Shown piece after piece: positions 3,014 to 15,215 of a stretch of 15,215 nucleotides of DNA (its first letter is position 1; each line of letters begins with the position of its first letter). The DNA lies in IMG/VR virus record IMGVR_UViG_2627853678_000004. One strand, written 5' to 3'. Origin of the DNA: a virus. Lineage: Duplodnaviria; Heunggongvirae; Uroviricota; Caudoviricetes. Under the pieces are notes generated by a model. It was not told where the DNA came from. It ran no database searches and saw only the letters and a program-made list of their open reading frames with translations. The position numbers and the translations under genes are program-made.

Positions 3014-3373
3014 ATGAGAATGACCAACCGCAAAAAAGAGATACTCAGCTACTTTGAGCCGGATAACCTCGAATGGGTGACAGGTGAGATTGGTGCGCCG
3101 CCGTTCGATGTATCGGGCGTGGCCTACCTGCTTCACGGCATGGTGTCGTTCGATAATCGCCACCAGCTCGAATCAACCCGGCGCACGCTGGAAAACATGG
3201 TTGCTGGTGGACTGCTTGAGCGGGTGACAGTGTATGAATCGCGCCAGATACGGCGCGGCGGTGAGACTAACGCAACGGTCGTGCGCTACGGTTTACCCGG
3301 TCAGTGCGCTGTTATGCGCGATACTGGCGGCGCTGATAACGCAATATCAGGTGAATACATGCGGGTCAGTTAA
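3014..3373 (+). CDS. hypothetical protein (119 aa)
   Basis: The only convincing plus-strand ORF in the window; non-repetitive protein-like composition (MRMTNRKKEILSYFEPDNLEWVTGEIGAPPFDVSG...). An AGGAA lies upstream, and 3020 is an alternative ATG. I do not recognise the family. Confidence 0.45.
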   Translation: MRMTNRKKEILSYFEPDNLEWVTGEIGAPPFDVSGVAYLLHGMVSFDNRHQLESTRRTLENMVAGGLLERVTVYESRQIRRGGETNATVVRYGLPGQCAVMRDTGGADNAISGEYMRVS

Positions 3374-3908
3374 TAGCCTGCAATCTGTCGTTGATGCGGC
3401 TCAGGTCGTAAACCCGGCGTTCAATATCCAGCATCAGGAAATTGTGGATCTCGGCCTGCTCAGGATTATCAGACTCTCTGGCCTGTAATAGCAATTCATT
3501 GTAACCATGCAAGCCGCCTGAGTTTTCCGCCGGGGTGGTGCCTTTCCCACGCAGGCAGCTAATGGGCTGATTGCTCGTATCGTGTGTTTGCTTCTCCAGC
3601 ACAATGACGCAATCCCACCAGTCGCCAAAGTCATACGTGTAAACCAGCTTGTCACCATCATTCTGGAGCGCTGCCCATAGTGGTGTGATTGCCGCATTAC
3701 CCATGCTTTCATCCTCACCCCATACGCGATACTCGCTACCGGGATCACCTTTACGCCCTTTCTCGAACATATACAGGTGTTCGTCATTCCAGCCAAAAGC
3801 CAACTGGATCACCGCGTGAAGTTCACTAAAGGGGATTTGCTCTGGAACCAGCACACGCCGCCATATAGGTGGTTTGCTGTCTCGGATGGTTATCTTTAGC
3901 TGGTACAT
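3366..3908 (-). CDS. pRiA4b ORF-3-like family protein
   Basis: Start placed at the internal ATG 3906-3908 (MYQLKITIRDSKPPIWRRVLVPEQIPFSELHAVIQLAFGWNDEHLYMF...), with AGGA 7 nt upstream. The YQLK...PPIWRR...GW.D.HL pattern is the recalled signature of the pRiA4b ORF-3-like domain. The six-frame ORF extends to 3956 without support. Confidence 0.6.
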   Translation of the reverse strand: MYQLKITIRDSKPPIWRRVLVPEQIPFSELHAVIQLAFGWNDEHLYMFEKGRKGDPGSEYRVWGEDESMGNAAITPLWAALQNDGDKLVYTYDFGDWWDCVIVLEKQTHDTSNQPISCLRGKGTTPAENSGGLHGYNELLLQARESDNPEQAEIHNFLMLDIERRVYDLSRINDRLQAIN

Positions 3909-3991
3909 GCAAATCCTGAATAAATGCGAATCGGAAGGATAACGATACTGACGCACTCACAATTCTGTAAAGGTGAATAAAGGTAATTTGC

Positions 3992-4213
3992 TTAATAAGC
4001 ATAAGTTACATGCGGAATAATCCCGTATCTACTGCGTGGCGCTGGCTTCTTCCACTGGTAGGCAGGCGCTCGCATCATCTCCCCGAACCGTTTGCGCCGG
4101 GCTGTATCAGCTTCAATAATGCGCTCCATTTCCCGAACCTCTGCCGGGGTAAGCTGGTGGCCTTCATGCTCCAGTTTAGCGGCTGTGATTGCGGCTATCT
4201 GCTGTGGTGTCAT
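3992..4213 (-). CDS. small hypothetical protein (73 aa)
   Basis: Internal ATG at 4211-4213 with AGGGG 8 nt upstream; product MTPQQIAAITAAKLEHEGHQLTPAEVREMERIIEADTARRKRF.... The longer ORF to 4369 adds only a low-complexity basic extension and runs across a strong hairpin. Confidence 0.35.
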   Translation of the reverse strand: MTPQQIAAITAAKLEHEGHQLTPAEVREMERIIEADTARRKRFGEMMRAPAYQWKKPAPRSRYGIIPHVTYAY

Positions 4214-4294
4214 GGTTGCCCCTGTTGCGTAGTTTTGGGCGATCAATATACTGTCCAAAACATAATTGCGCCGGGTATTAGTCTGTCCGCTCTC

Positions 4295-4321
4295 AAACGC
4301 CCTTTTGGGCGTTTTGCTTTT
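4295..4321 (+). terminator. terminator-like hairpin
   Basis: AAACGCCC-TTTT-GGGCGTTT is a perfect 8 bp stem with a 4 nt loop, followed on the plus strand by TGCTTTT. It lies in the leader of the 73-aa gene; functional strand is uncertain. Confidence 0.35.
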
Positions 4322-4482
4322 ACAGCTTCGGGCCAATATCTTTGGCAGCTTTCCCCGTCTTACGCTCAATCACGCCCGTGATATAGCTGCGCGTTCTGTT
4401 TCTCACTGGCTGGCCTCCTGCGAATTACTGCGCATTAACTGCGATCTGCGCAAAAAATGAATGAGAGATAATAAGCGTTTTT

Positions 4483-4568
4483 CTGCGTACTGCGCACCAG
4501 TGGCGCGAACCAGAATATTTTGGACTGCCTAAATCGAATATGGCTTCCAGCCCGCTACTGGCGCGGTT
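4483..4568. repeat. copy 1 of an ~86 bp conserved intergenic repeat
   Basis: CTGCGTACTGCGCACCAGTGGCGCGAACCAG...GGCTTCCAGCCCGCTACTGGCGCGGTTC aligns to 5268-5354 at roughly 85% identity, and the final 26 bp are identical. Confidence 0.8.
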
Positions 4569-4638
4569 CTCTCTTCATATGGGCTTTGAGTCTGTCCAGT
4601 ACAGTCCAGTATTTCAACATTGGTGACTATACGGATTG

Positions 4639-5016
4639 CTAACATGCGCCGCTTTTTTTAACCCTTCGCAGATCCCGCCTTGCTTGCATTGAAACGGCTC
4701 TCGCTAATCTCAGCTCAAGCCGTGCGATTCTGTCGGCATGTAGCCCCATGAGTCCGTTAATCAATGTCATCTCGCGCCATTCTTCTGTTCCCGGCGTCGG
4801 ATTATTCGCCAGTAATAGCCCGTATCTCTCAGCCAGCATGAGGTTTCTTGCACGATTTCGCACCAGCGGAGAAAGCGCCTCTCCCCCCTCAAATGGGAAG
4901 AATGCCCGCCGACTGCGTTCGCCATGTTTGACGGCATTAGTATTGCCCAATGGTGCGCCTGCGCCTTTCCGCTTGCCACCCCATCCCGATCTTGATTGTT
5001 GGCTATTTTTTTTCAT
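4639..5016 (-). CDS. small basic protein with a GxGxPxGNxNAxKHG motif, possibly terminase small subunit-like
   Basis: ORF with ATG at 5014-5016 (MKKNSQQSRSGWGGKRKGAGAPLGNTNAVKHGERSRR...). I recall the N-terminal motif from some phage small-terminase or DNA-packaging proteins. The Shine-Dalgarno is weak and the function assignment is tentative. Confidence 0.4.
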   Translation of the reverse strand: MKKNSQQSRSGWGGKRKGAGAPLGNTNAVKHGERSRRAFFPFEGGEALSPLVRNRARNLMLAERYGLLLANNPTPGTEEWREMTLINGLMGLHADRIARLELRLARAVSMQARRDLRRVKKSGAC

Positions 5017-5267
5017 TTAACGGCTCACTGTGCGCATTTTTGTGCGCAAAAACCTTAACAAACCCTAACAATACCTTAATAAAACTGTATATCTAACTTC
5101 CGCCATCTACTGCGAACTGATAGCGCCCAAGCCAGAAATATCAAGCCTCTCCACCATTTTGCGAATGCGCAATTCGCGCTTACAAATTACTGCGAATTCG
5201 CAATTTCTGTACGCAATGCCACCGTTAGCATTTGTCAGGTAGTACGCACGTTGAATACGCAGTTTTG

Positions 5268-5354
5268 CTGCGCACTGCGTACCAGTGGAACGAACCAGAT
5301 ATTTAGGACGTCCTGAATCACGATTTGGCTTCCAGCCCGCTACTGGCGCGGGTC
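5268..5354. repeat. copy 2 of the ~86 bp conserved intergenic repeat
   Basis: CTGCGCACTGCGTACCAGTGGAACGAACCAG...GGCTTCCAGCCCGCTACTGGCGCGGGTC; contains the perfect palindrome AGGACGTCCT. Direct repeat of 4483-4568. Confidence 0.8.
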
Positions 5355-5420
5355 TGGCGCTGCTAGGGTTTTAAATCCGTACTAAACAGTACTAAATTTT
5401 CCGCCGTTTGGGTGCGAAAC

Positions 5421-5732
5421 TTACTGCGAACCATCGCCCCCGCTGGTGGTATGCCGTTGCCTCTTGCCGCCATTTAACCGGAAGGCGTTACCGTTCGGTT
5501 GCGCTATCCCCATGCGGTGCTGAGTTTCGGTGACAGCTTTATGCAGGTCGCCAAAGTCCTCAACCTTCACGGGCGGGCGCTTCACGTTCTCCAGACACGT
5601 TTCACGGCGGCGCTTTATCCATTCCCGATCATCGTCCTCGGTGCATAACAGCATGACTTCCATCCATCGCGCGGCGGCGCGTCGGTACAGCCCTTTTGCT
5701 TCCAGATCCTCAGCTTTGCTGTCGTTTACCAT
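5421..5732 (-). CDS. PerC-family transcriptional regulator
   Basis: ATG at 5730-5732 preceded by GAGGGGGG; product MVNDSKAEDLEAKGLYRRAAARWMEVMLLCTEDDDREWIKRRRETCL..., matching the recalled PerC-family N-terminal pattern. It sits 11 nt downstream of the ssb stop. Confidence 0.65.
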   Translation of the reverse strand: MVNDSKAEDLEAKGLYRRAAARWMEVMLLCTEDDDREWIKRRRETCLENVKRPPVKVEDFGDLHKAVTETQHRMGIAQPNGNAFRLNGGKRQRHTTSGGDGSQ

Positions 5733-5743
5733 GTTCACCCCCC

Positions 5744-6205
5744 TCAGAATGGCGTTTCATCGTCGAATGGTGGGCGCTGGTCAAAATCATCAGGGGTGTT
5801 ATATAGCTCCCATCCCGGCGCGGATTGCGTTTCGTGGCCCCTGCTGGCTCCACTTGCTTTGACTGACTCGGCCCGCTTCCCGCCGGGGCGTACCGTTCTG
5901 GCGCTGATCACGCTGTCGGCTACTACCTGATACCCCTGCTGTGTACCGCCATCCTTGCCCGCCCACTGATTGACCTGCATCGCTCCGGCAACACTGACTA
6001 AATCGCCTTTAACGTGTCCTGCCAGTGCGTCGGCCTGTTTGCCGAATGCCACCACGCCCAGCCAGAAAGTAACCTCTCCGCCCTCTGCTGCATGGCAAGG
6101 CAGTGCCACCGCTAAACGCCCCATTGTCATGCTGCCGCCGCTGTTTGTCGTTCTGGTCTGGGGATCTGCCACCAGCCGCCCGTAGGCTGATATCTGTGCT
6201 GTCAT
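5744..6205 (-). CDS. ssb: single-stranded DNA-binding protein
   Basis: 153 aa with OB-fold-like N-terminal region, a Gly/Gln-rich linker and the acidic C-terminal tail FDDETPF typical of bacterial and phage SSBs. GAGGT Shine-Dalgarno. Confidence 0.75.
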   Translation of the reverse strand: MTAQISAYGRLVADPQTRTTNSGGSMTMGRLAVALPCHAAEGGEVTFWLGVVAFGKQADALAGHVKGDLVSVAGAMQVNQWAGKDGGTQQGYQVVADSVISARTVRPGGKRAESVKASGASRGHETQSAPGWELYNTPDDFDQRPPFDDETPF

Positions 6206-6307
6206 TTTGCGAATACCTCGAATTATTAGTTTTGCTAATGAAGATTGCCCGGCACCGTCTTATTGTGGGACACCTTCGCCAGATTTTTTTGTATATAACA
6301 AAAATAG

Positions 6308-6567
6308 TGTTGTCTCTGTTGTCTTTGTTGTCTCACGGCTCTACAGGCCGCGCCACGTCTGGGTTTTGCTGAGACAACATTTGCAATTTCGTGTTGTCTC
6401 ACCCGGCATAAATGTTGTCTCACTGCCTGCCGGACTAAAAACACACGTTCGCCCTGTTGTCTCAAAATGGCTAAATGTTGTCTCAATGTTGTCTCAAAAA
6501 TTAAAATAAAATCCTTATAAATCAATGTAACTTACAAAATGAGACAACAAAGACAACAGAGACAACA
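6308..6567. repeat. iteron array and AT-rich tract: putative replication origin
   Basis: Eleven copies of TGTTGTCTC or its complement, counting two one-base variants. A perfect 27 bp inverted repeat (6308-6334 against 6541-6567) brackets the region, and an AT-rich tract lies at 6496-6540. The array sits directly 3' of the primase-helicase gene. Confidence 0.6.
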
Positions 6568-6592
6568 CTAAAACTACGTATGTGAAAAAAGA

Positions 6593-9352
6593 TTATTCTT
6601 CTGGCTGGCTGCTTTCCTCATCCATGAAGTTGAGCACATAAACGCGAATTTGCCGCCCTCCTTCCCTTACCCGCCCCTGATAACCTCGCCCGCTCGTTGG
6701 TGGTGTTAGCATTCCTGCATTCTTGAGAACTTCGGCAAACTGCCTGACATTAAAACCCCGTGCGATCTCCTGCTCAAATGTTGCCGGGAAGGTGTAGAAA
6801 ATTATCGGGTCGCCGTCGTGGTTCCCCTTCTTCCTGTACCCGGCTAAATCACGGATGGGTAAATCGCGCGGGTCATAACCCAGCGGCGCGAATCTACTCA
6901 GCCCATAGGCATTTAAAAACGCCTCCGTCTGCTCGATGATCTGCTGGTGCTCTTTGTTCCCCGTGCCGAACTCTTTCAGCCATGCGTTATAGGTGTGCTG
7001 TATCGCATCCCGGCACGTTTGAGCATCCCAGCCAGTAACCACGCCACCCAGCAGTAAAGCGGCCTCCAGAATGGCGAACCTCGCCCCTACACGGTGAACC
7101 TGTTCCCCATAGTCAGCAGGGATTAGACTTCGCCATCGGGCTTCACACTCACGAACGGCATCAATCGCCTGCTGCTGGTGGTCTGAAAGCCATCTAATCC
7201 ACTCCCGCCCGGCAGCGCCATGATGGTGCTGGTAAGCGTCTTTCAGCGCGTCGGCGTGATCTTTCCCTGTCTGGTGCTCATGAAAGCGCACCGCCTTACT
7301 CAGCGGGATATTCAGCAGTCGCACCAGTTGCCCCGCTTTTGTCTTGCGTCCTGCGGTGGCGATGAACGTTTCTAAATCCATTTCCCCGGTGCTGATTGCC
7401 ACGGTGCGCCAGCGTTTCAGATCCCGGTTGCCTCCTTCCTTTGCTCCCTGCAATTTCCCCACGCCGTTAAACAGGGCATAGGCAGACTGAGAAACGCTTA
7501 TCGGGTCTGCGCCCTGTCCGACTTCATCCAGCGGCATCAGCCCGTCATTGTGGGCGGCGGCCTCGTTTATCAGCCCCAGCGCCGTCCCATACCACGTCAG
7601 GCGCAAGGCATCAGGGTTGCCGTAAAGACTGCTCGCCACGTTCTGCGTGGTTGTTTTCCCGGCGCTCGATTGCTCATAAAAATGAATCCCGAATCCGTCA
7701 CGATCTGCCACCCCGATTAATGGCGCTGCCAGTGCTGCGGCGATGCCTGTCATCATCGCGTAGTTGCCGTATGCCAGCCGCGCAACACTGTTAAGCCAGC
7801 TTTCAGGCGTTCCTGCTACGGTATACCCGGCAGCGGCTGAACTGCGCCCGCTGAACAAAACAGGCCGCTGAGGTGTGCCGATGATTTCCCCGTCCGGCAT
7901 GATGTATGCCCCACACTGCCAGCCTGTAGCATGAGCAACGCGCCACAATTCACGCGAGCCGCTTCGCTGTAACCAGTCGGCAAGAATCGCCCGTAGGCTG
8001 TTTTTCGTTGTGACGTTGACGCCACCAGCTTTCAGGGTGCGCCAGCCTTCACGCTCGCCAATATCAGCCAGCGGGATAGCCGCTGTTGTCCGTATGCCTG
8101 CACCGAATGCCAGCCATGAGATAATAAGATACTGATCTTTGTCGTCGCGTCCCGTGCCGATAACCTCCAACGGTGAACATAACCAGCTTTCAGCGTTGAT
8201 GATCTCCCCGCTTTCCTTGTCCACCTTCGGCGTTACCCAGAAAACGCCATCTTTTCGGCTCTCAATGTGGGGTTTTAGTGGGTCTTTCTCTGGATGGTCA
8301 GTTTTACCGCCCTCAATGGCCTGCAATCGTGGTTTAACGGCTTCCCCTTGAATCTGGTACATCGAGTCGTTAAACGCAGCCGTAGCGACTTCCAGCCCGT
8401 TTTGCTGGTGGTGGTCGTTCCAGTCGGCTTTGTAGTCTGTCGGCGGCAGTGCCACCCATCCAGCCACGGACAAGGCGGCTTTCTCTGCGGCCTCCCTGCC
8501 TGTATTGGCTTCTCCGTTTTGGTGGTGGTCGTTGTCTGCGGCGATGATTATTTGTGCCTGTGGATACTTCCGGCGCATCACTTCGGCAACGGGTAGCAGG
8601 TTGCCCGCGTCAATTGCTGCCACTGCCAGCGCGTCCGGGCGCATCAGGTGAACTGAAAGGGCCGTCGCCAGCCCCTCGGCAATTAAAACGCTCTGCGGCG
8701 ATTCTGGCGCGTTTACGGCGTGATATGCCCCGCGCTTTGCCGAACCCGTCAGAAGTCGCTTTTCTCCATGCGGTGTAATGGTCTGCGCTGCTGCCACTGC
8801 GCCGGATTCATCCACCAGCTCCAGCAATAACGAACCATCTGGCATTAGCGGGTAATTAAACCCGGTCAGCCCTTTTGATTGCAGGTACTCAGCTTCGCCC
8901 TGTATGGCTCTCTGGCGCATTCCGGCATACAGACGGGAAAACGTAGCCCGGCGCTGCTCTGCGTCCTCTGCGGCCTTTTTCTGTCGCTCCTGCTCATGCC
9001 GCTGGCGGTCTGCGGCTAACTGCGTCTGTCTCTGGCTGGCAGCGTCTGGTGCTGGTTCTGCGGCCCGGTAATCAATACCCAGCACATCAGCGGCAAGGTG
9101 CGCCGCCTCCGTGGTGTCGCAGTTGTTAACCCGTTTGATTAAATCCAGCCCATCGCCCGCGCCGCACTGATTGCAGATAAAGCTACCTCGCCCGTTGTCG
9201 TCGAATCTGAAACGGTCTTTCCCACCACATGCAGGGCAGGGGGCATGACGGCGCGATGAATCAGGAACGTCGATAGACAGGCCAGCCAGCACATAAGGCC
9301 ATTTACCAGCGGCGGCGCTGGTCACTTCGCGGATAATGTCGATATTACGCAT
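6593..9352 (-). CDS. primase-helicase (zinc-ribbon, TOPRIM and P-loop domains), P4 alpha-like replication protein
   Basis: 919 aa. N-terminal CPACGG...FICNQCG zinc ribbon; TOPRIM-like segment (AEGLATA...IIAADNDHH...GEANTGREAAEKAA); C-terminal P-loop region (SSAGKTT Walker A-like, MPLDEVGQ Walker B-like). GGGAGG Shine-Dalgarno before the ATG at 9350-9352. Confidence 0.85.
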   Translation of the reverse strand: MRNIDIIREVTSAAAGKWPYVLAGLSIDVPDSSRRHAPCPACGGKDRFRFDDNGRGSFICNQCGAGDGLDLIKRVNNCDTTEAAHLAADVLGIDYRAAEPAPDAASQRQTQLAADRQRHEQERQKKAAEDAEQRRATFSRLYAGMRQRAIQGEAEYLQSKGLTGFNYPLMPDGSLLLELVDESGAVAAAQTITPHGEKRLLTGSAKRGAYHAVNAPESPQSVLIAEGLATALSVHLMRPDALAVAAIDAGNLLPVAEVMRRKYPQAQIIIAADNDHHQNGEANTGREAAEKAALSVAGWVALPPTDYKADWNDHHQQNGLEVATAAFNDSMYQIQGEAVKPRLQAIEGGKTDHPEKDPLKPHIESRKDGVFWVTPKVDKESGEIINAESWLCSPLEVIGTGRDDKDQYLIISWLAFGAGIRTTAAIPLADIGEREGWRTLKAGGVNVTTKNSLRAILADWLQRSGSRELWRVAHATGWQCGAYIMPDGEIIGTPQRPVLFSGRSSAAAGYTVAGTPESWLNSVARLAYGNYAMMTGIAAALAAPLIGVADRDGFGIHFYEQSSAGKTTTQNVASSLYGNPDALRLTWYGTALGLINEAAAHNDGLMPLDEVGQGADPISVSQSAYALFNGVGKLQGAKEGGNRDLKRWRTVAISTGEMDLETFIATAGRKTKAGQLVRLLNIPLSKAVRFHEHQTGKDHADALKDAYQHHHGAAGREWIRWLSDHQQQAIDAVRECEARWRSLIPADYGEQVHRVGARFAILEAALLLGGVVTGWDAQTCRDAIQHTYNAWLKEFGTGNKEHQQIIEQTEAFLNAYGLSRFAPLGYDPRDLPIRDLAGYRKKGNHDGDPIIFYTFPATFEQEIARGFNVRQFAEVLKNAGMLTPPTSGRGYQGRVREGGRQIRVYVLNFMDEESSQPEE

Positions 9353-9366
9353 TCGTATTACCTCCC

Positions 9367-9489
9367 TCAGTGCGCCGCTGGCATTTCAGGCAAGCCGTTT
9401 TCATTCAGATCAGCAATGAATCCATCATGCAGCTCTGCCAGCGTTTCACGTCCGAACGGGGTCAGCTCGCCGCGCTCCGTGTCGATCAT
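9367..9489 (-). CDS. unannotated 40-aa ORF, translationally coupled to the primase-helicase
   Basis: Not in the supplied ORF track. Its ATG (9487-9489) overlaps the stop of the 168-aa ORF as ATGA, and its TGA (9367-9369) lies just before the primase Shine-Dalgarno. Product MIDTERGELTPFGRETLAELHDGFIADLNENGLPEMPAAH. Confidence 0.35.
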   Translation of the reverse strand: MIDTERGELTPFGRETLAELHDGFIADLNENGLPEMPAAH

Positions 9490-9992
9490 GGCCTGATAAA
9501 AACAATGGCGTTCGCCGTTCCCTGCTCAATGCCGTAGCGCTCAATCATTGCGCCCTCGATGTTATTCGCCATCGCCAGACGTTCCGCGAACGGGTAAACC
9601 ACAATCCCCGCCGTGCCATTGGAGTAAATCGCTACTTTTGACGTTGTGCCGTCAGCCTCCGTGACGGTGGTTGTGCCGTTTTCGCGCTTCATCTCAGAAA
9701 TGAACGTGGTAGCAATCAGCCAGCGCCACATAGTGACGTTATGCTGCGCGGTAAAGTCGAACCAGCCACGCGCCCCGCCATCAGCAACGGCAAAATGTAT
9801 GGCGTATCCGATATTTGGCGTATCGTCGTACTCTCCGGCATCAAGGCGGTTTACCGCGCTCTCGTAGCTGATAAGAGCAACCTGCTCATATCCCCCGGCA
9901 TCATTGCGGGTCATGATATTGACGCCGTGCGGTGTGGCTTCGGCGTGTAATAAGTCGGCATTTCCCGATTTAATGGTCGGTGCGTTGCTCAT
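9486..9992 (-). CDS. hypothetical protein (168 aa)
   Basis: ORF in an ATGA-overlap chain with its neighbours; non-repetitive composition. Family not recognised. Confidence 0.55.
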   Translation of the reverse strand: MSNAPTIKSGNADLLHAEATPHGVNIMTRNDAGGYEQVALISYESAVNRLDAGEYDDTPNIGYAIHFAVADGGARGWFDFTAQHNVTMWRWLIATTFISEMKRENGTTTVTEADGTTSKVAIYSNGTAGIVVYPFAERLAMANNIEGAMIERYGIEQGTANAIVFIRP

Positions 9993-10252
9993 GCGCTGCC
10001 CTCCGCATCAATTCTGGCTATATCGACAATCGTCAGGACTTTACTCAGCCAGCAATACGCGATGGCTGCTTGCTCAACTTCGAGGAGTGGTAATAAATCG
10101 GTCATAACGTGAGCCAGCCCATTGCGGGCGCGGGTCATGCGTTCTGCTGTTCGGTCTGCCAGCGTAAAATCATCCGGGTATGATTCTTTGCGAGATAGCA
10201 TCGCTTCGGCTTCCAGCTCTGCCGGGTGGCGGTAGATGGTATTTATGTTCAT
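9989..10252 (-). CDS. hypothetical protein (87 aa)
   Basis: Its ATG (10250-10252) overlaps the upstream stop as ATGA, and its stop overlaps the next start as ATGA. Confidence 0.5.
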   Translation of the reverse strand: MNINTIYRHPAELEAEAMLSRKESYPDDFTLADRTAERMTRARNGLAHVMTDLLPLLEVEQAAIAYCWLSKVLTIVDIARIDAEGSA

Positions 10253-10428
10253 GCTGCCACCTCACGAATGCGGGTAATCTGGATGTGGGAAAGGCGTTCA
10301 TTTCTGGCCTGATTTAGCGCCTCAGCTTTGGCGCTGATCGCGCTGCGGGCGTCAACGATATAAACGAACTCGACTAATTCGCCGCTCCGGGCGGTGGCGC
10401 ATCCTGCAACACGGAAGTAATTAAGCAT
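10249..10428 (-). CDS. hypothetical small protein (59 aa)
   Basis: ATG at 10426-10428 with AGGGGG 6 nt upstream (MLNYFRVAGCATARSGELVEFVYIVDARS...). It overlaps the upstream stop by 8 nt. The six-frame ORF start at 10458 lacks a Shine-Dalgarno. Confidence 0.45.
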   Translation of the reverse strand: MLNYFRVAGCATARSGELVEFVYIVDARSAISAKAEALNQARNERLSHIQITRIREVAA

Positions 10429-10612
10429 GTGCGCCCCCTGTGCGAATACGTCCGGCAAAAAAGCAAACGTGATCCCGCGCCAGAATGCGGCGGGCTTCCT
10501 GCTCAGTTTCTGCGGCGATATGGTGAATTTTGGCGGTAATTGTCGGCATGTCGCGGCGAACGGCTGCGATTAACCAGATAAATTGTGGATTTTGGGTAGG
10601 GGTAGTAGCCAT
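10421..10612 (-). CDS. small protein (63 aa), possibly Icd-like
   Basis: ATG at 10610-10612 with GAGG upstream (MATTPTQNPQFIWLIAAVRRDMPTITAKIHHIAAETEQEARRILARDHVCFFAGRIRTGGAHA). Resemblance to Icd-like small proteins of P4-type islands is from memory only. Confidence 0.4.
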   Translation of the reverse strand: MATTPTQNPQFIWLIAAVRRDMPTITAKIHHIAAETEQEARRILARDHVCFFAGRIRTGGAHA

Positions 10613-10781
10613 GATGGCAGCCTCTATACAGTGAATTTTGAATTCACCACCAAGAGACGCCAATCTCAGACTGGTGGTGAGCTGAACAAGGTTGGCGTAA
10701 CCGGCCTGTATAGACACCGGCCTTCCTTTCGGAAGCCTCATCCAGCCCACCATAATTTGGGTGCGCAGGAATTTTGCCGAC

Positions 10782-10804
10782 AAAAAAACACGCTTAGTGC
10801 GTGT
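10782..10804 (-). terminator. putative intrinsic terminator or attenuator in the leader
   Basis: On the minus-strand RNA, ACACGC-loop-GCGUGU (6 bp stem, 5 nt loop) is followed by UUUUUUU. It lies inside the long non-coding-looking region upstream of the small-ORF/primase operon. Confidence 0.35.
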
Positions 10805-11132
10805 CGGCACTATACAGGTTATCGGGACGCCAATCCCGGCACCTGATTTTGCAGGTGCGCTATAACCATAAACCGGGTTGGCGATAGTCGGCAAGCCCTT
10901 TTTTATGGACTCGCAAAACTCACCTTCGCGCGTGCGCGTACTGGTCGCAAAACTCGAAAAAAACTTAGGATTTATTAGGATTCGCAGCCCAATTCTCAGC
11001 CCAGAAAACGCCTCTAAAATGTCGTCATTTGTCGCAACGGCGCGGCGATGAATGTCAGGTTTTGACAGGTTGTAAGGGTTAACATTTGTTAACAGGCTAG
11101 CCAGATTAAAGGCTTCTTTCTGGGCGGCAGGT

Positions 11133-11315
11133 TCATTCAGTATCACGGCGCACCTCCACGAACTCCTTAACGAATCTCTCCAAAGGCTGAACACATGGCG
11201 ACTGATAGCCCTCGCGGTAAAAGGTCACTCGGTTATGCTCGACGCGCTGTACGGTCACTACAGCCCCGTGCGAATCCTTGTAACGGCTTCCCGGCATCGG
11301 ATTATGGTTACGCAT
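11133..11315 (-). CDS. hypothetical small protein (60 aa)
   Basis: ATG at 11313-11315 with GGAGG upstream (MRNHNPMPGSRYKDSHGAVVTVQRVEHNRVTFYREGY...). Overlaps the antirepressor stop by 8 nt. Confidence 0.5.
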   Translation of the reverse strand: MRNHNPMPGSRYKDSHGAVVTVQRVEHNRVTFYREGYQSPCVQPLERFVKEFVEVRRDTE

Positions 11316-12140
11316 GGTTTACCTCCAGACGTTTAGCGAGCCAGCGTTGCGACAGGCGGGTGAGTTCTCCTTTGGGCTGCTCATATTCCATGCCCATATC
11401 AATTAACGTGATATTGGTGCTTTCGAGATATGAGAGGTGCTCAAGCTGTTCTGCGTTCATATGGTCGCGAGGTTCGCCAGAATAGCCATTTATCCGCGCC
11501 CACTGCTTAGCAGTTAGCCCACCAAGAACGATACGAGAAATCATATTGCTCTCGTTTGTGTAGTGGTGTTGCTGCGTCGTTTTACCCATCTCGGCACGGG
11601 CCATATTCAGCGCATCGCACATCGGCTTAAAGTTGTTTGCGGCACTGATACGGGCTTTTAGCTGGCGACGATAGCGGGCGGCGATTTCAGGCACGCTACG
11701 CTGTAATTCTTCCTCGCACTGGATGAAATAACGGCGGATAGCGCGGCCCTGTTCGGTGCGTTCGATCATTGCCAGTTCTTTCGCCATTCCGACACTTAAC
11801 AGATAGTCTTTGCCGGGTCTGCCAGAGTGCTTAATCTTGCTGTAAGCCGCGCCATTCGGGCTTTTCCCCAAATTTGGGGAAATAGTTTTATGGACTGAGT
11901 AATCGTGCCCAATGGTGAAGTCATATTCAGAGATGCGATCAGTGATCCATGTAGAGAAGTCTTTTCCCACGCCCAACGCTTTGTGTAACGCTTTTGCGCT
12001 AACAATATTGGTTTCACGCCCACCGATATGACCAGGAATAACCGGGACAATTGCGGCAAATTCATTACCGTTAATTGTGCCTGATAGGCGTTCAGATGAG
12101 GGGCGGCCTCAGAAATTAATCTGCTTTTTTCGATGTTCAT
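11308..12140 (-). CDS. phage antirepressor (AntA/KilAC-type); 5' end is in a different frame from the conserved body, possible pseudogene
   Basis: Conserved body in one frame (open 11308-12108): ...IVPVIPGHIGGRETNIVSAKALHKALGVGKDFSTWITDRISEYDF...DYLLSVGMAKELAMIERTEQGRAIRRYFIQCEE.... That frame has no ATG, GTG or TTG start with a Shine-Dalgarno before the TTG at 11976. The only good start (GGAG plus ATG at 12138-12140) is in another frame that stops at 11796. Confidence 0.55.
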
Positions 12141-13840: not shown

Positions 13841-13955
13841 CGCGTCACCTTTCACGCTGTGCCTTAAAGAGTGATTGAGCCAGGCGGTAAGGCTTCCCGC
13901 TTTTCGCCCCGTCGGGCTAGGCTCAATCTGTCCTCTGATTCTTTACATATCTTGG

Positions 13956-15215
13956 TTACTTCGCCTTTCTCAGCGGTGTAACGTTGTACTCTTCGCCGCG
14001 CTCCAGTGCCACCAGCAATCCCGCCCACTGTGTTAACGCGGCCCGGCGTTCATCAAAGTATTGGTGGCGGTTATAGATACCCTCCACGCCTTTAATTTTG
14101 TGGTTAAGGCATCTTTCTGCGACTACAGGATCAACGCCCAGCGCGGCTAAATGGGTGCGGGCCGTGCGCCGGAAGTCGTGAATAGTGAAATTCGGCACGT
14201 CCGGCATTTCAGCGCGAACCTTCGCCAGCGCAACGGGCAGGGTGCTTTCCTGAATATGGGGGATCATGCGGTTTTGCATCTTTCTGGCTGGCAGTACCCA
14301 TGCGCTGTTGCATGAGAACGTTTTAAGCTCTCTCAGCCATTCGACTGCTGGCGGTGCTAATGGAATGTCTATAGCGTCGCCGTTTTTGCTGCGTTCCTCT
14401 GGCAAGCGCCATACGGCTTTATCAAGATCGAACTCCTCCCAGCGGGCGGCGCATAACTCCATTTTGCGGACGCATAACGCTAACAGTAATTTGAACGTGA
14501 TTTCATTCTGGCGACTGAAACCCTTAGCCGTGCGCATGGCTTTGAATAGCTGGATTAACTCATCGCGTGTTAGCCAGCGGTCGCGGCTAACCTCCTTCCC
14601 TCCAGCGTCTGCCACCTCAAAGGCTGAACAGGGGTTAATCTCCAGCGCGTGCCGTTTGATTCCGTAGTCGAATATGCGGCGCGTCCATCTCAGCACGTCC
14701 GTTGCTATGGTCGGCGCTCCACGGTCAACAATACCTTTCAGCATGTCGTCGATATGGCGCGGCTTCACGTCCTCTACCTTCATGCTGCCAATGCAGGGGT
14801 TTATATCTTTGTCGATACGGCGGCGGAGTATATCGGGGTGCTTCCAGCGGGGCAGTATCTGACGTTCAAAGTATTCAGCGGCAAGCTCTGAAACGCGCAT
14901 GGCGTTTTTTTCTGCTTCCATCTTCGCCAGTGCTTCGGATTTCCGCTCCTGCTTCTCCCCGGCAACGTCATAACCCAGCGCAACACGCGCCGAAAGCTCC
15001 TTTGCTGTCTCTCTGGCCTTTGATAGTGATAGCTCGCTATACGAACCAATTAGCATTGCGCGGGACTTCCCTGCGAGTTTATAGCGGAATCTCCATGTGG
15101 GGGTTTTGTCGGCTTCACGGTAACGCAGGTATAAGCCGTTCCCGTCCGCCCGTCCCTCGAATCGCTCTCCGGCCTTTATCCACGCGCGGATCTGCATGTC
15201 TGTGAGTTTTGGCAT
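13956..15215 (-). CDS. int: tyrosine recombinase / integrase, P4 family
   Basis: 419 aa; N-terminus MPKLTDMQIRAWIKAGERFEGRADGNGLYLRYR is typical of P4-type integrases. C-terminal catalytic region has HDFRRTARTHL and GIYNRHQYFDERR. The start codon is at the last base of the window. Confidence 0.9.
   Translation of the reverse strand: MPKLTDMQIRAWIKAGERFEGRADGNGLYLRYREADKTPTWRFRYKLAGKSRAMLIGSYSELSLSKARETAKELSARVALGYDVAGEKQERKSEALAKMEAEKNAMRVSELAAEYFERQILPRWKHPDILRRRIDKDINPCIGSMKVEDVKPRHIDDMLKGIVDRGAPTIATDVLRWTRRIFDYGIKRHALEINPCSAFEVADAGGKEVSRDRWLTRDELIQLFKAMRTAKGFSRQNEITFKLLLALCVRKMELCAARWEEFDLDKAVWRLPEERSKNGDAIDIPLAPPAVEWLRELKTFSCNSAWVLPARKMQNRMIPHIQESTLPVALAKVRAEMPDVPNFTIHDFRRTARTHLAALGVDPVVAERCLNHKIKGVEGIYNRHQYFDERRAALTQWAGLLVALERGEEYNVTPLRKAK

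Follow-up and report, generated by a model that had tools for sequence, protein, structure and literature searches.

The optional segment and its cassette genes

The window, which is the whole stretch of 15,215 nt analysed here, is a phage-inducible chromosomal island (PICI) and a close relative of EcCIMP1, the PICI of E. coli MP1 that was mobilised experimentally by the P22-like phage Kapi1 (Pick et al. 2025). An optional hotspot at 4214-5438 sits between perC and the terminal module, and this segment is also missing from an empty-site island. Its features are listed below, with a strand where one is assigned.

4214..5438, minus strand: whole optional segment with two leader-plus-gene cassettes, absent from EcCIMP1 and from the majority of islands with the same terminal module
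4323..4406, minus strand: 27-aa ORF, internally deleted remnant of a 158/203-aa zinc-ribbon cassette gene
4418..4496: TGCG hexamer cluster of leader 1, with four CTGCG and with TGCGTA/TGCGCA at 4484 and 4491
4483..4568: repeat 1, conserved core of leader 1, direct relative to repeat 2
4592..4611: two tandem 10-bp direct repeats, CTGTCCAGTA CAGTCCAGTA, at the distal end of leader 1
4639..5016, minus strand: 125-aa cassette gene between the two repeats, with a small-terminase-like N-terminal motif
5031..5075, minus strand: transcribed leader directly ahead of the 125-aa start codon, with TGCGCA-N6-TGCGCA at 5031-5048
5031..5281: leader 2 array of TGCG[ACT]A hexamers, which face either way
5137..5165, minus strand: putative sigma-70 promoter for the 125-aa gene, with -35 TTCGCA (5165-5160), 17-nt spacer, -10 GATATT (5142-5137)
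5268..5354: repeat 2, conserved core of leader 2, with 48 distinct homologous copies
5377..5396: two tandem 10-bp direct repeats, CCGTACTAAA CAGTACTAAA, at the end of leader 2 that is farther from the promoter
5413..5430: two additional TGCGAA sites, beyond core 2 and within the perC 3' end

The 125-aa protein carries the conserved N-terminal motif GGKRxGAGAPxGNxNAVKHG, which weakly matches small-terminase profiles, and beyond this motif a helical hairpin followed by a long helix is predicted. When we compared the protein with phrog_1889, a small-terminase family, only the 20-residue motif was aligned (E 0.007), and a weak match to the same family was obtained for 35 of the 38 members of the 125-aa family, the best at 1.8e-4. 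The match to NF040601 (E 1e-3) was also confined to the 20-residue motif and lay far below the family cut-off. Comparison with PDB sequences, including a profile search, gave no match, the AlphaFold model searched with Foldseek gave no PDB fold match at E <= 0.001 and none to a terminase or Rpp, and the similarity to Kapi1 TerS and P22 gp3 was not significant. In Klebsiella, the 125-aa homologue is followed by a DUF2280 gene, and in phage ZF40 a DUF2280 gene occupies the small-terminase position directly upstream of the large terminase. The terminase-like motif encoded beside the hexamer arrays and the DUF2280 neighbour in Klebsiella point towards packaging and against a regulatory role of the leaders. 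Searches of the cassette proteins with PADLOC, Pfam and NCBIfam gave matches only to DUF6979 and DUF2280.

Repeat 1 had been placed upstream of the 73-aa gene in an earlier reading of the same DNA (the sequence-only reading), which is wrong; it heads the 27-aa ORF (4406-4323), whose GGAGG ribosome-binding site is abutted by the hexamer cluster of leader 1. In related islands, the intact 158/203-aa gene is headed by a leader of this type.

The repeated core and its distribution

An 86-bp pair of about 85% identity had been described at this locus, and our alignment confirmed it: 4483-4568 and 5268-5354 are identical at 73 of 88 columns (83%) with two 1-nt indels, and they lie in direct orientation 785 nt apart. 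Past the 86 bases a weaker homology extends to ~4625 and ~5410, with 74% identity over 148 columns (~140 nt). Within repeat 2 lie TGCGCAC/TGCGTAC, CCAGTGG, AGGACGTCCT, a degenerate version of the CCAGAATATTCTGG palindrome, and GGCTTCCAGCCCGCTACTGGCGCGG, which has a CCAG-N7-CTGG dyad. Neither scanning nor reading of the sequence revealed a recognisable sigma-70 promoter or intrinsic terminator in the core itself.

The tandem 10-bp units are found ~25 nt past the perC stop codon in leader 2 and ~27 nt past the stop codon of the 125-aa gene in leader 1. The paired units co-vary, with 6.63 of 8 positions identical compared with 5.79 +/- 0.24 for shuffled partners (8 of 5000 shuffles reached the observed value), which is what a putative tandem binding site bearing specificity would show. 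We rejected the interpretation of these units as recombinase arm sites, since the rest of the island, the surroundings of the att sites included, has no further copies. The repeat types differ between the two copies of one island, which is awkward for a single island-encoded reader protein.

We collected 48 distinct copies of the leader from E. coli, Klebsiella, Shimwellia and metagenomes. Its orientation is constant among them, and it heads three unrelated genes, encoding the 125-aa protein, the 203-aa zinc-ribbon protein and a DUF6979 protein, with at least four kinds of upstream neighbour (PerC alleles, a 116-aa signal-peptide protein, the 125-aa gene and SSB). A degenerate pattern scan of GTDB genomes retrieved 38 loci, 37 of them chance matches in GC-rich genomes and the Shimwellia locus a true relative. 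The terminal module is present in 379 of 5426 E. coli genomes and the leader element in only ~50 of the 5426, and ~87% of the genomes carrying the terminal module are without the element. Where present, the element occurs in one to four places per genome, and every inspected copy lies in an island like this one. A search of 50,697 phage genomes found no match, either to the element (blastn, with E values up to 10 allowed) or to the 125-aa protein (tblastn).

The repeats could be mainly blocks of recombination homology, namely cassette-borne junctions that are kept alike by exchange between islands and have little function of their own, although we regard this as unlikely. The islands are highly mosaic and the segment is optional, the same element is found next to many different genes on either side, and the variation within the element is itself strongly mosaic, with core segments recombining independently between copies. 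However, an identity of 80-95% is held across Escherichia, Klebsiella and Shimwellia as well as between the copy pair of a single island, all copies point the same way, the paired 10-bp units co-vary, and the extreme hexamer enrichment described below persists in genera whose intergenic sequence has otherwise diverged. Taken together, these four properties point to selection on the sequence itself.

Hexamer arrays, candidate promoter and possible leader RNA

Between 4380 and 5440 (1061 nt) we counted 21 positions with the hexamer TGCG[ACT]A or its complement, compared with 2.54 +/- 1.59 expected from 2000 first-order Markov simulations, in which the maximum was 9. The densest 300 nt holds 12 hexamers, compared with 3.3 +/- 0.7 (maximum 6) in simulations of the whole window. 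The sequence-only reading had named a chance control for its motif counts, and these simulations place the hexamer count far above chance. All of its short motifs were recovered: CTGCG at 4418, 4428, 4439 and 4446, TGCGAAT at 4419, 5160 and 5191, GCGAATTCGC at 5192, AGGACGTCCT at 5305, CATTTTGCGAAT at 5155 and 6203, and TACTGGCGC at 2924, 4556 and 5341. The recurrence of TACTGGCGC at 2924 is present but is a lone 9-mer match (~0.1 expected by chance), and we give it no weight. TACTGCG was found seven times on the plus strand and not on the minus strand, and the array of leader 2 includes the 12-bp palindrome TGCGAATTCGCA (5191-5202) and TGCGAATGCGCAATTCGCG (5160-5178).

Hexamer arrays also precede the 125-aa homologues of distant E. 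coli, Salmonella, Serratia, Dickeya and Klebsiella loci, the surroundings of which have diverged. Over-represented and conserved clusters of short sites are found in non-coding DNA upstream of genes (21 sites; five genera), as is expected of an operator array. Known sites were also considered. Scanning of 3900-5600 for the Ogr/Delta pattern TGT-N12-ACA, the LexA box, the IHF consensus and boxA found none of them, and the XerC arm of dif/cer, the KorB operator and the PhoB, CpxR and TorR boxes were rejected after comparison by eye, in which only a few bases fitted. Iterons of the island origin were rejected as well; the origin region (6287-6590) uses TGTTGTCTC within a 31-nt perfect inverted repeat, which is unrelated to TGCGNA.

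Within the proximal leader, conservation across E. coli, Klebsiella and Dickeya is highest in the block that holds the candidate promoter of the 125-aa gene (CTGCGAATTCGCAAAATxGxxGAGxxGCCTGATATTTCTGG in the three genera), and hexamers overlap this promoter. As read from the sequence, TTCGCA-N17-GATATT matches 8 of the 12 consensus positions and so falls below the threshold of the promoter scan; the promoter and terminator scan of the region gave results at chance level. Short-spacer variants such as L002_b have lost this block, whose promoter activity is putative, and retain the core. Closer to the gene, the transcribed leader contains the tandem repeat TGTTAGGGTT TGTTAAGG at 5053-5075 (plus strand), and both this repeat and TGCGCA-N6-TGCGCA are kept in Klebsiella and Dickeya. 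The latter may fold into a 6-bp hairpin ahead of the ribosome-binding site of the 125-aa gene.

We tentatively suggest, with a probability of roughly 45%, that the repeats are part of a cis-regulatory cassette leader which acts at the DNA level and was duplicated by cassette stacking. The leader consists of a ~170 nt core and a hexamer array of variable length (100-600 nt), is non-coding, and stands before each optional cassette in the variable region that is flanked by the replication/perC module on one side and the 61-aa/pRiA4b terminal module on the other, with the repeats as its most conserved part. It would act through numerous 9-10-bp sites that share the core TGCGNA (roughly WWAYTGCGNAYT), face either way and in part form palindromes; these sites are arranged around and over the sigma-70-like promoter in an operator-array layout and may time cassette expression. 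The upstream core, which has the co-varying pairs of 10-bp repeats and the CCAG-N6/7-CTGG dyads, would be a binding site for at least one additional factor. According to this proposal, the island has two leader copies because it has two cassettes in tandem, and the shared leader would provide homology for swapping and stacking cassettes.

A family of shared operator or activator sites had already been proposed by the sequence-only reading, with PerC, AlpA or a helper-phage factor as candidate binders. The site family itself fits the hexamer enrichment, the conservation in five genera, the TGCGAATTCGCA palindrome and the promoter overlap, but co-occurrence does not support PerC or AlpA as binders. 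The leader and arrays are present in the islands L003 and L006, which are without PerC, and EcCIMP1 has a PerC of 89% identity and no array. In the case of AlpA, L100 has identical repeats, but tblastn found no match to the AlpA of the window. PerC, the AlpA allele, the 125-aa protein and the 312-aa protein do not co-occur strictly with the element, and neither does any other protein of the island. Protein binding to the leader sites is inferred, and a helper-phage factor is a possible candidate for the binder.

Structured RNA elements had been raised as an alternative. Each transcription unit would then have one copy, encoding either a cis-acting RNA (leader or antiterminator) or a small RNA with a regulatory role. 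The put sites of HK022 and the nut sites are the antiterminator models for such elements, and the two copies, each before a leftward gene, would correspond to putL and putR. Folds of single sequences had a small advantage over those of shuffled controls (z = -1.2 to -1.9), and the potential 6-bp hairpin just upstream of the 125-aa ribosome-binding site would be in line with an RNA role. However, the consensus folds were weak on both strands. RNAalifold gave -4.6 and -5.0 kcal/mol for 41 copies, and for 18 diverse copies on the transcribed strand it gave -12.5 kcal/mol with a covariation term of -0.19 kcal/mol. When we performed the covariation analysis that had been proposed as a check, only 1 of 15 pairs was compensatory in the 18 diverse copies and several were broken, so that no conserved fold was observed. 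In addition, the predicted hairpins of the two window copies are unlike each other, the copies differ by 1-nt indels, and no pair of promoter and terminator bounds a small RNA. Rfam 15 at E <= 1 matched nothing in 4400-5440; its only matches in the whole window were at 6287-6590 (chance level), 10670-10871 and 13861-13927. The covariation analysis largely refutes a structured RNA, which we now consider highly improbable.

Packaging and comparison with known systems

The main rival to the regulatory leader is that the repeats are duplicated packaging-initiation sites of the pac or cos kind, which we consider possible though rather doubtful. Here the GC-rich core would be cleaved or recognised, and the TGCGNA hexamers would bind a packaging-specificity protein, namely the 125-aa terminase-motif protein, alone or with the small terminase of the helper. 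The same logic applies to the hexamer-flanked pac site of P1, and to cos1/cos2 and Rpp of EcCICFT073. The latter island was reported with two functional cos sites (Fillol-Salom 2018, 2019; PMC6092414, PMC6739421). In CFT073, lambda cosN occurs twice, in a 77-nt, 82%-identical inverted repeat around a 435-nt gene (presumably rpp), and this pair lies at the same island position, downstream of ssb and perC, and matches the window pair in size, divergence and layout. The weak small-terminase similarity of the 125-aa family and the DUF2280 genes in Klebsiella and ZF40 are also consistent with packaging, as are the TGCGAA sites on both sides of core 2 and the order of core, array and gene, which parallels lambda cosN, cosB and Nu1.

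Several results argue against packaging sites. First, lambda cosN is absent from both intergenic regions: GGGCGGCGACCT with <=2 mismatches was found only within genes at 7552, 9464 and 11676 and not in 4380-5440, while the same search in CFT073, as positive control, gave two exact copies. Second, neither the element nor the 125-aa protein has a match in the 50,697 phage genomes, and no similarity of the element to the cos region of a helper phage was seen. Third, the element is restricted to 50 of 5426 E. coli genomes, with all inspected copies in such islands, and is missing from most genomes with the terminal module as well as from EcCIMP1, a sister island mobilised by the pac-type phage Kapi1. 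Fourth, islands without the 125-aa gene still have the core and ~30 hexamers, and the Dickeya, Serratia and Salmonella homologues have arrays without the core. Finally, the predicted 125-aa fold matches no terminase or Rpp, and hexamer clusters are absent from Kapi1, from EcCIMP1 and from the terminase region of ZF40. The ends of 16 full-length metagenome contigs were uninformative in this respect, with no terminal overlaps and no coincidence with the element. The genome ends of HK97, which were inspected as a possible likeness, bear no resemblance to it.

A combined role is conceivable but improbable in our view, in which the leader would be a portable packaging-and-timing module of satellites with pac-type (P22-like) helpers, and the array together with the 125-aa protein would form a platform that redirects the helper terminase to the core. 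The 125-aa protein would then be a small-terminase mimic with a terminase motif and an oligomerisation hairpin and without a DNA-binding domain, and the system would be the headful-packaging counterpart of Rpp/cosB on an exchangeable cassette. If true, this would extend the Rpp paradigm to headful phages.

PICIs of E. coli attract study both as vehicles of gene transfer and for the anti-phage and virulence genes that they carry, whose context is, to our knowledge, still little described with regard to the expression and exchange of the optional cassettes and to packaging by pac-type helpers. The leader element offers a sequence handle to locate the variable hotspot of EcCIMP1-like islands, gives defined candidate operator sites together with a candidate promoter, and is a concrete candidate for a regulatory switch or packaging signal of these satellites.

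When we compare the window with known systems, cos1/cos2 of the PICI EcCICFT073 is similar in having a ~80-nt repeat pair of ~82% identity, 650-800 nt apart, that brackets one small gene, with a known or putative link to packaging, downstream of ssb and perC. However, that pair is inverted, contains exact lambda cosN and resembles the helper cos, whereas the window pair is direct and without cosN there, has no match in phage genomes, is optional in its island family, and also heads unrelated cassettes. EcCIMP1 is of the same island family, with a terminal module of 94% DNA identity, a PerC of 89% protein identity and homologous TOPRIM/DUF927 primase and AntA/B, but lacks the whole of 4214-5438, and with it the repeat, the hexamer array and the 125-aa gene.

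In the pac site of phage P1, clusters of the hexamer TGATCA/G lie on both flanks of the cleavage region. The window likewise has hexamer clusters on both sides of a central conserved segment, beside a gene with a small-terminase-like motif, although its hexamer is different, arrays of its type are far larger (up to ~30 sites/600 nt) and the element is optional. Arrays of short-repeat operators around promoters are known from the heptads of the omega repressor of plasmid pSM19035 and from other iterated operators of plasmids and phages. Although arrays of the window type are also seen in places that lack the neighbouring small gene, and the likeness is one of layout, the pSM19035-type arrays share with the window many 6-10-bp sites, direct and inverted and spaced by 6-13 bp, which lie over a promoter (a candidate one in the window) upstream of a gene for a small basic helical protein.

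Gene content of the island

The island lies between yicC and dinD on the E. coli chromosome, and every island gene in the window is transcribed leftward, in the following order.

13956-15215, leftward: integrase, first in the gene order
after the integrase: int-alpA RNA, AlpA-type regulator and AntA/B
after AntA/B: Icd-like gene with C4 and isrK RNAs
6593-9352, leftward: TOPRIM/DUF927 primase, followed by the iteron origin
after the origin, leftward: SSB, then PerC (5421-5738)
beyond the repeat region, leftward: 61-aa gene, pRiA4b-ORF3 gene and dinD paralogue

Judged by this gene content and order, the island is classified as a Gram-negative phage-inducible chromosomal island (PICI), and its nearest characterised relative is EcCIMP1 of E. 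coli MP1. Kapi1, a P22-like phage with headful (pac) packaging, induces and transduces EcCIMP1 (PMC11773190). Virion genes of P22 type occur in island relatives: EcCIMP1 contains ejection-protein genes (6481-11649 of that locus), and a second locus, L061, contains a tailspike gene with a P22 head-binding domain (3116-4948) approximately 2 kb from a copy of the repeat element. These genes point to P22-like helper phages for the island family.

Several other features of the island were observed. At 10670-10871 (- strand), Rfam matched three elements: the C4 antisense RNA (72 bits), its a1/b1 target (48 bits) and isrK (76 bits). They sit within or beside the Icd-like gene, on the downstream side of AntA/B, and together make up a P1/P7-type antisense immunity cassette on a PICI. 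The int-alpA RNA motif (RF02996, 65 bits; 13861-13927, - strand) lies directly downstream of the integrase, on the alpA side. The origin region (6287-6590, between primase and ssb) holds an inverted repeat with perfectly matching 31-nt arms (6305-6335 and 6540-6570), built from TGTTGTCTC iterons, with more iterons at 6392-6488. The integration site has two dinD (Bro-N domain) genes (880-1716 and 2055-2879; approximately 73% identity over 300 nt), one of the host and one an island-borne paralogue. A Chi sequence, GCTGGTGG, is located at 5442-5449 (+ strand) within the 3' end of perC; approximately 45 nt separate it from the distal end of the leader that contains repeat 2.

The repeat pair and its sequence family

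The sequence-only reading had proposed a repeat pair, and 4483-4568 (repeat 1) and 5268-5354 (repeat 2) are genuine direct repeats with 83% identity, 785 nt apart. The short motifs it reported are all present where it had placed them, and the control for motif excess gave 21 positions of the hexamer TGCG[ACT]A (both strands) in 1061 nt versus 2.5 ± 1.6 in composition-matched simulations, with 12 sites in the densest 300 nt versus 3.3 ± 0.7. The 73-aa gene assigned to repeat 1 was an error: this repeat precedes a 27-aa ORF whose ribosome-binding site is GGAGG. The ORF is what a deletion has left of a 158/203-aa zinc-ribbon protein that related islands carry in intact form, since its first eight and its last nineteen residues correspond to the two ends of that protein. 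After it, at 4295-4314, lies a G+C-rich hairpin (AAACGCCC-TTTT-GGGCGTTT; T-run flank on the + strand only), which may be a 3' boundary or bidirectional terminator of the 203-aa cassette.

The element is a genuine sequence family, unannotated in the inspected records. Of 5426 complete E. coli genomes, about 50 contain it, at one to four copies per genome; nearly all listed E. coli matches were unannotated intergenic sequence, and every copy inspected sat in an island of the same kind. Pattern scans also detected it in Shimwellia, Klebsiella and some 45 contigs of metagenome or viral origin. Among the 48 distinct copies collected, conservation of the central block is partly by construction, because the search pattern fixed part of it. 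Read along transcription, a copy begins approximately 25 nt past the upstream gene's stop codon and consists of a tandem pair of 10-bp repeats, followed by TTTAAAACCC, a GC-rich stretch that includes a CCAG-N7-CTGG dyad, a segment with the near-palindrome CCAGAATATTCTGG, and TGCGNAC repeats leading into a hexamer array of 100-600 nt and the downstream gene. The copies vary as mosaics. The two 10-bp units change in pairs (e.g. GTCCAGTA twice, GTACTAAA twice, or GTCCTATG with GTCCTATA) and agree at a mean of 6.63 of 8 positions versus 5.79 ± 0.24 for shuffled partners, a comparison inflated by shared ancestry.

It had also been proposed that the repeats are structured RNA, which is very improbable. 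Single-sequence folds gained marginally over shuffled controls, the two window copies folded differently, and the repeat region, like the element itself, had no Rfam match. For 41 copies, RNAalifold gave -4.6 kcal/mol on one strand and -5.0 kcal/mol on the other; with 18 diverse copies the transcribed strand reached -12.5 kcal/mol, of which the covariation term was -0.19, and one of 15 pairs was compensatory, a pair broken by five sequences. We rejected this reading on the weak folds, the blank Rfam result and the near absence of covariation.

Exchangeable cassettes and their leaders

The element heads three unrelated genes, namely the 125-aa gene (4639-5016, - strand, in the window), the 203-aa zinc-ribbon gene and a DUF6979 gene, and its upstream neighbours are PerC alleles, a 116-aa signal-peptide protein, the 125-aa gene or SSB. 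In EcCIMP1, a 94% match to the window extends up to 4213 and a 92% match resumes at 5439, inside perC; the intervening segment is missing. The terminal module (3014-4213) occurs in 379 E. coli genomes, approximately seven times the number with the element, and in an example island perC is followed by 297 unrelated bases and the 61-aa gene. Based on these observations, 4214-5438 is an optional segment, which consists of two leader-plus-gene cassettes in tandem, and the window has two repeats because two cassettes are stacked. That the repeats of such a segment are mainly recombination homology seems improbable to us. The element is a DNA-level leader marking exchangeable cassettes of EcCIMP1-like phage satellites, and it probably controls their expression. 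We assign a probability of about 0.45 to the element being a cis-regulatory leader, the mechanism of which we infer.

The hexamer arrays are older and more widely conserved than the core of the element. Homologues of the 125-aa gene (protein identity 47-72%) have arrays upstream at a distant E. coli locus and in Salmonella, Serratia, Dickeya and Klebsiella. The core is recognisable in Escherichia, Klebsiella and Shimwellia only, and approximately 30 hexamers ahead of the 203-aa gene persist in islands without the 125-aa gene. The extended site approximates WWAYTGCGNAYT, in both orientations and often at 6-7 or 10-13 bp spacing. The block of the 125-aa proximal leader best conserved in three genera comprises two features, listed here with their positions in the window.

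5165-5137, - strand: TTCGCA-N17-GATATT
5191-5202: palindrome TGCGAATTCGCA, beside it

This block is plausibly a sigma-70 promoter with overlapping operators. Downstream of the candidate promoter, the transcribed leader contains a tandem TGTTAGGGTT TGTTAAGG repeat (5053-5075 in + coordinates; transcribed strand -), shared with Klebsiella and Dickeya, and TGCGCA-N6-TGCGCA just ahead of the ribosome-binding site. PerC and AlpA, suggested earlier as binders, are unsupported, since no island protein strictly co-occurs with the element.

The 12-mer CATTTTGCGAAT of the candidate -35 region has an exact second copy across the ssb start codon (6203-6214; approximately 0.002 chance matches expected), which puts TTCGCA between the ribosome-binding site and the ATG. 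In Serratia fonticola (locus L056, 3200-3900), iteron families beyond GGTACGCA were observed (AACCGACTGAACCGAC, GGAAAC repeats and ACGGTCGGA repeats), and by sequence the 1-kb region upstream of the 125-aa homologue resembles a replication origin.

Packaging sites as a rival reading, and comparison with known satellites

The main rival reading is that the repeats are packaging sites, which would make the element more interesting and which we consider unlikely, if less so than recombination homology. A short motif in 35 of 38 members of the 125-aa family weakly matches small-terminase profiles, and a DUF2280 gene comes next after the Klebsiella 125-aa homologue; in phage ZF40, the place directly upstream of the large terminase is taken by a DUF2280 gene. 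However, the repeat-bearing intergenic regions contain no cosN, the element has no phage match, and it is optional in the island family and missing from EcCIMP1, which is mobile in experiments. The core without the 125-aa gene and the 125-aa gene without the core both occur, and the 125-aa protein, predicted to fold as a helical hairpin and then a long helix after a disordered N-terminus, gave no terminase or Rpp structure match.

EcCICFT073 reportedly carries two functional cos sites and Rpp, which retargets the helper small terminase (PMC6092414, PMC6739421). The CFT073 genome contains lambda cosN in two copies, which make up an inverted repeat (77 nt, 82% identity) on either side of a gene of 435 nt that is presumably rpp; the whole arrangement is located downstream of ssb and perC. 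This layout of a cos pair around a small gene is strikingly like that of the window pair and favours the packaging reading. We regard the element as a new version of cis-elements already known from satellites.
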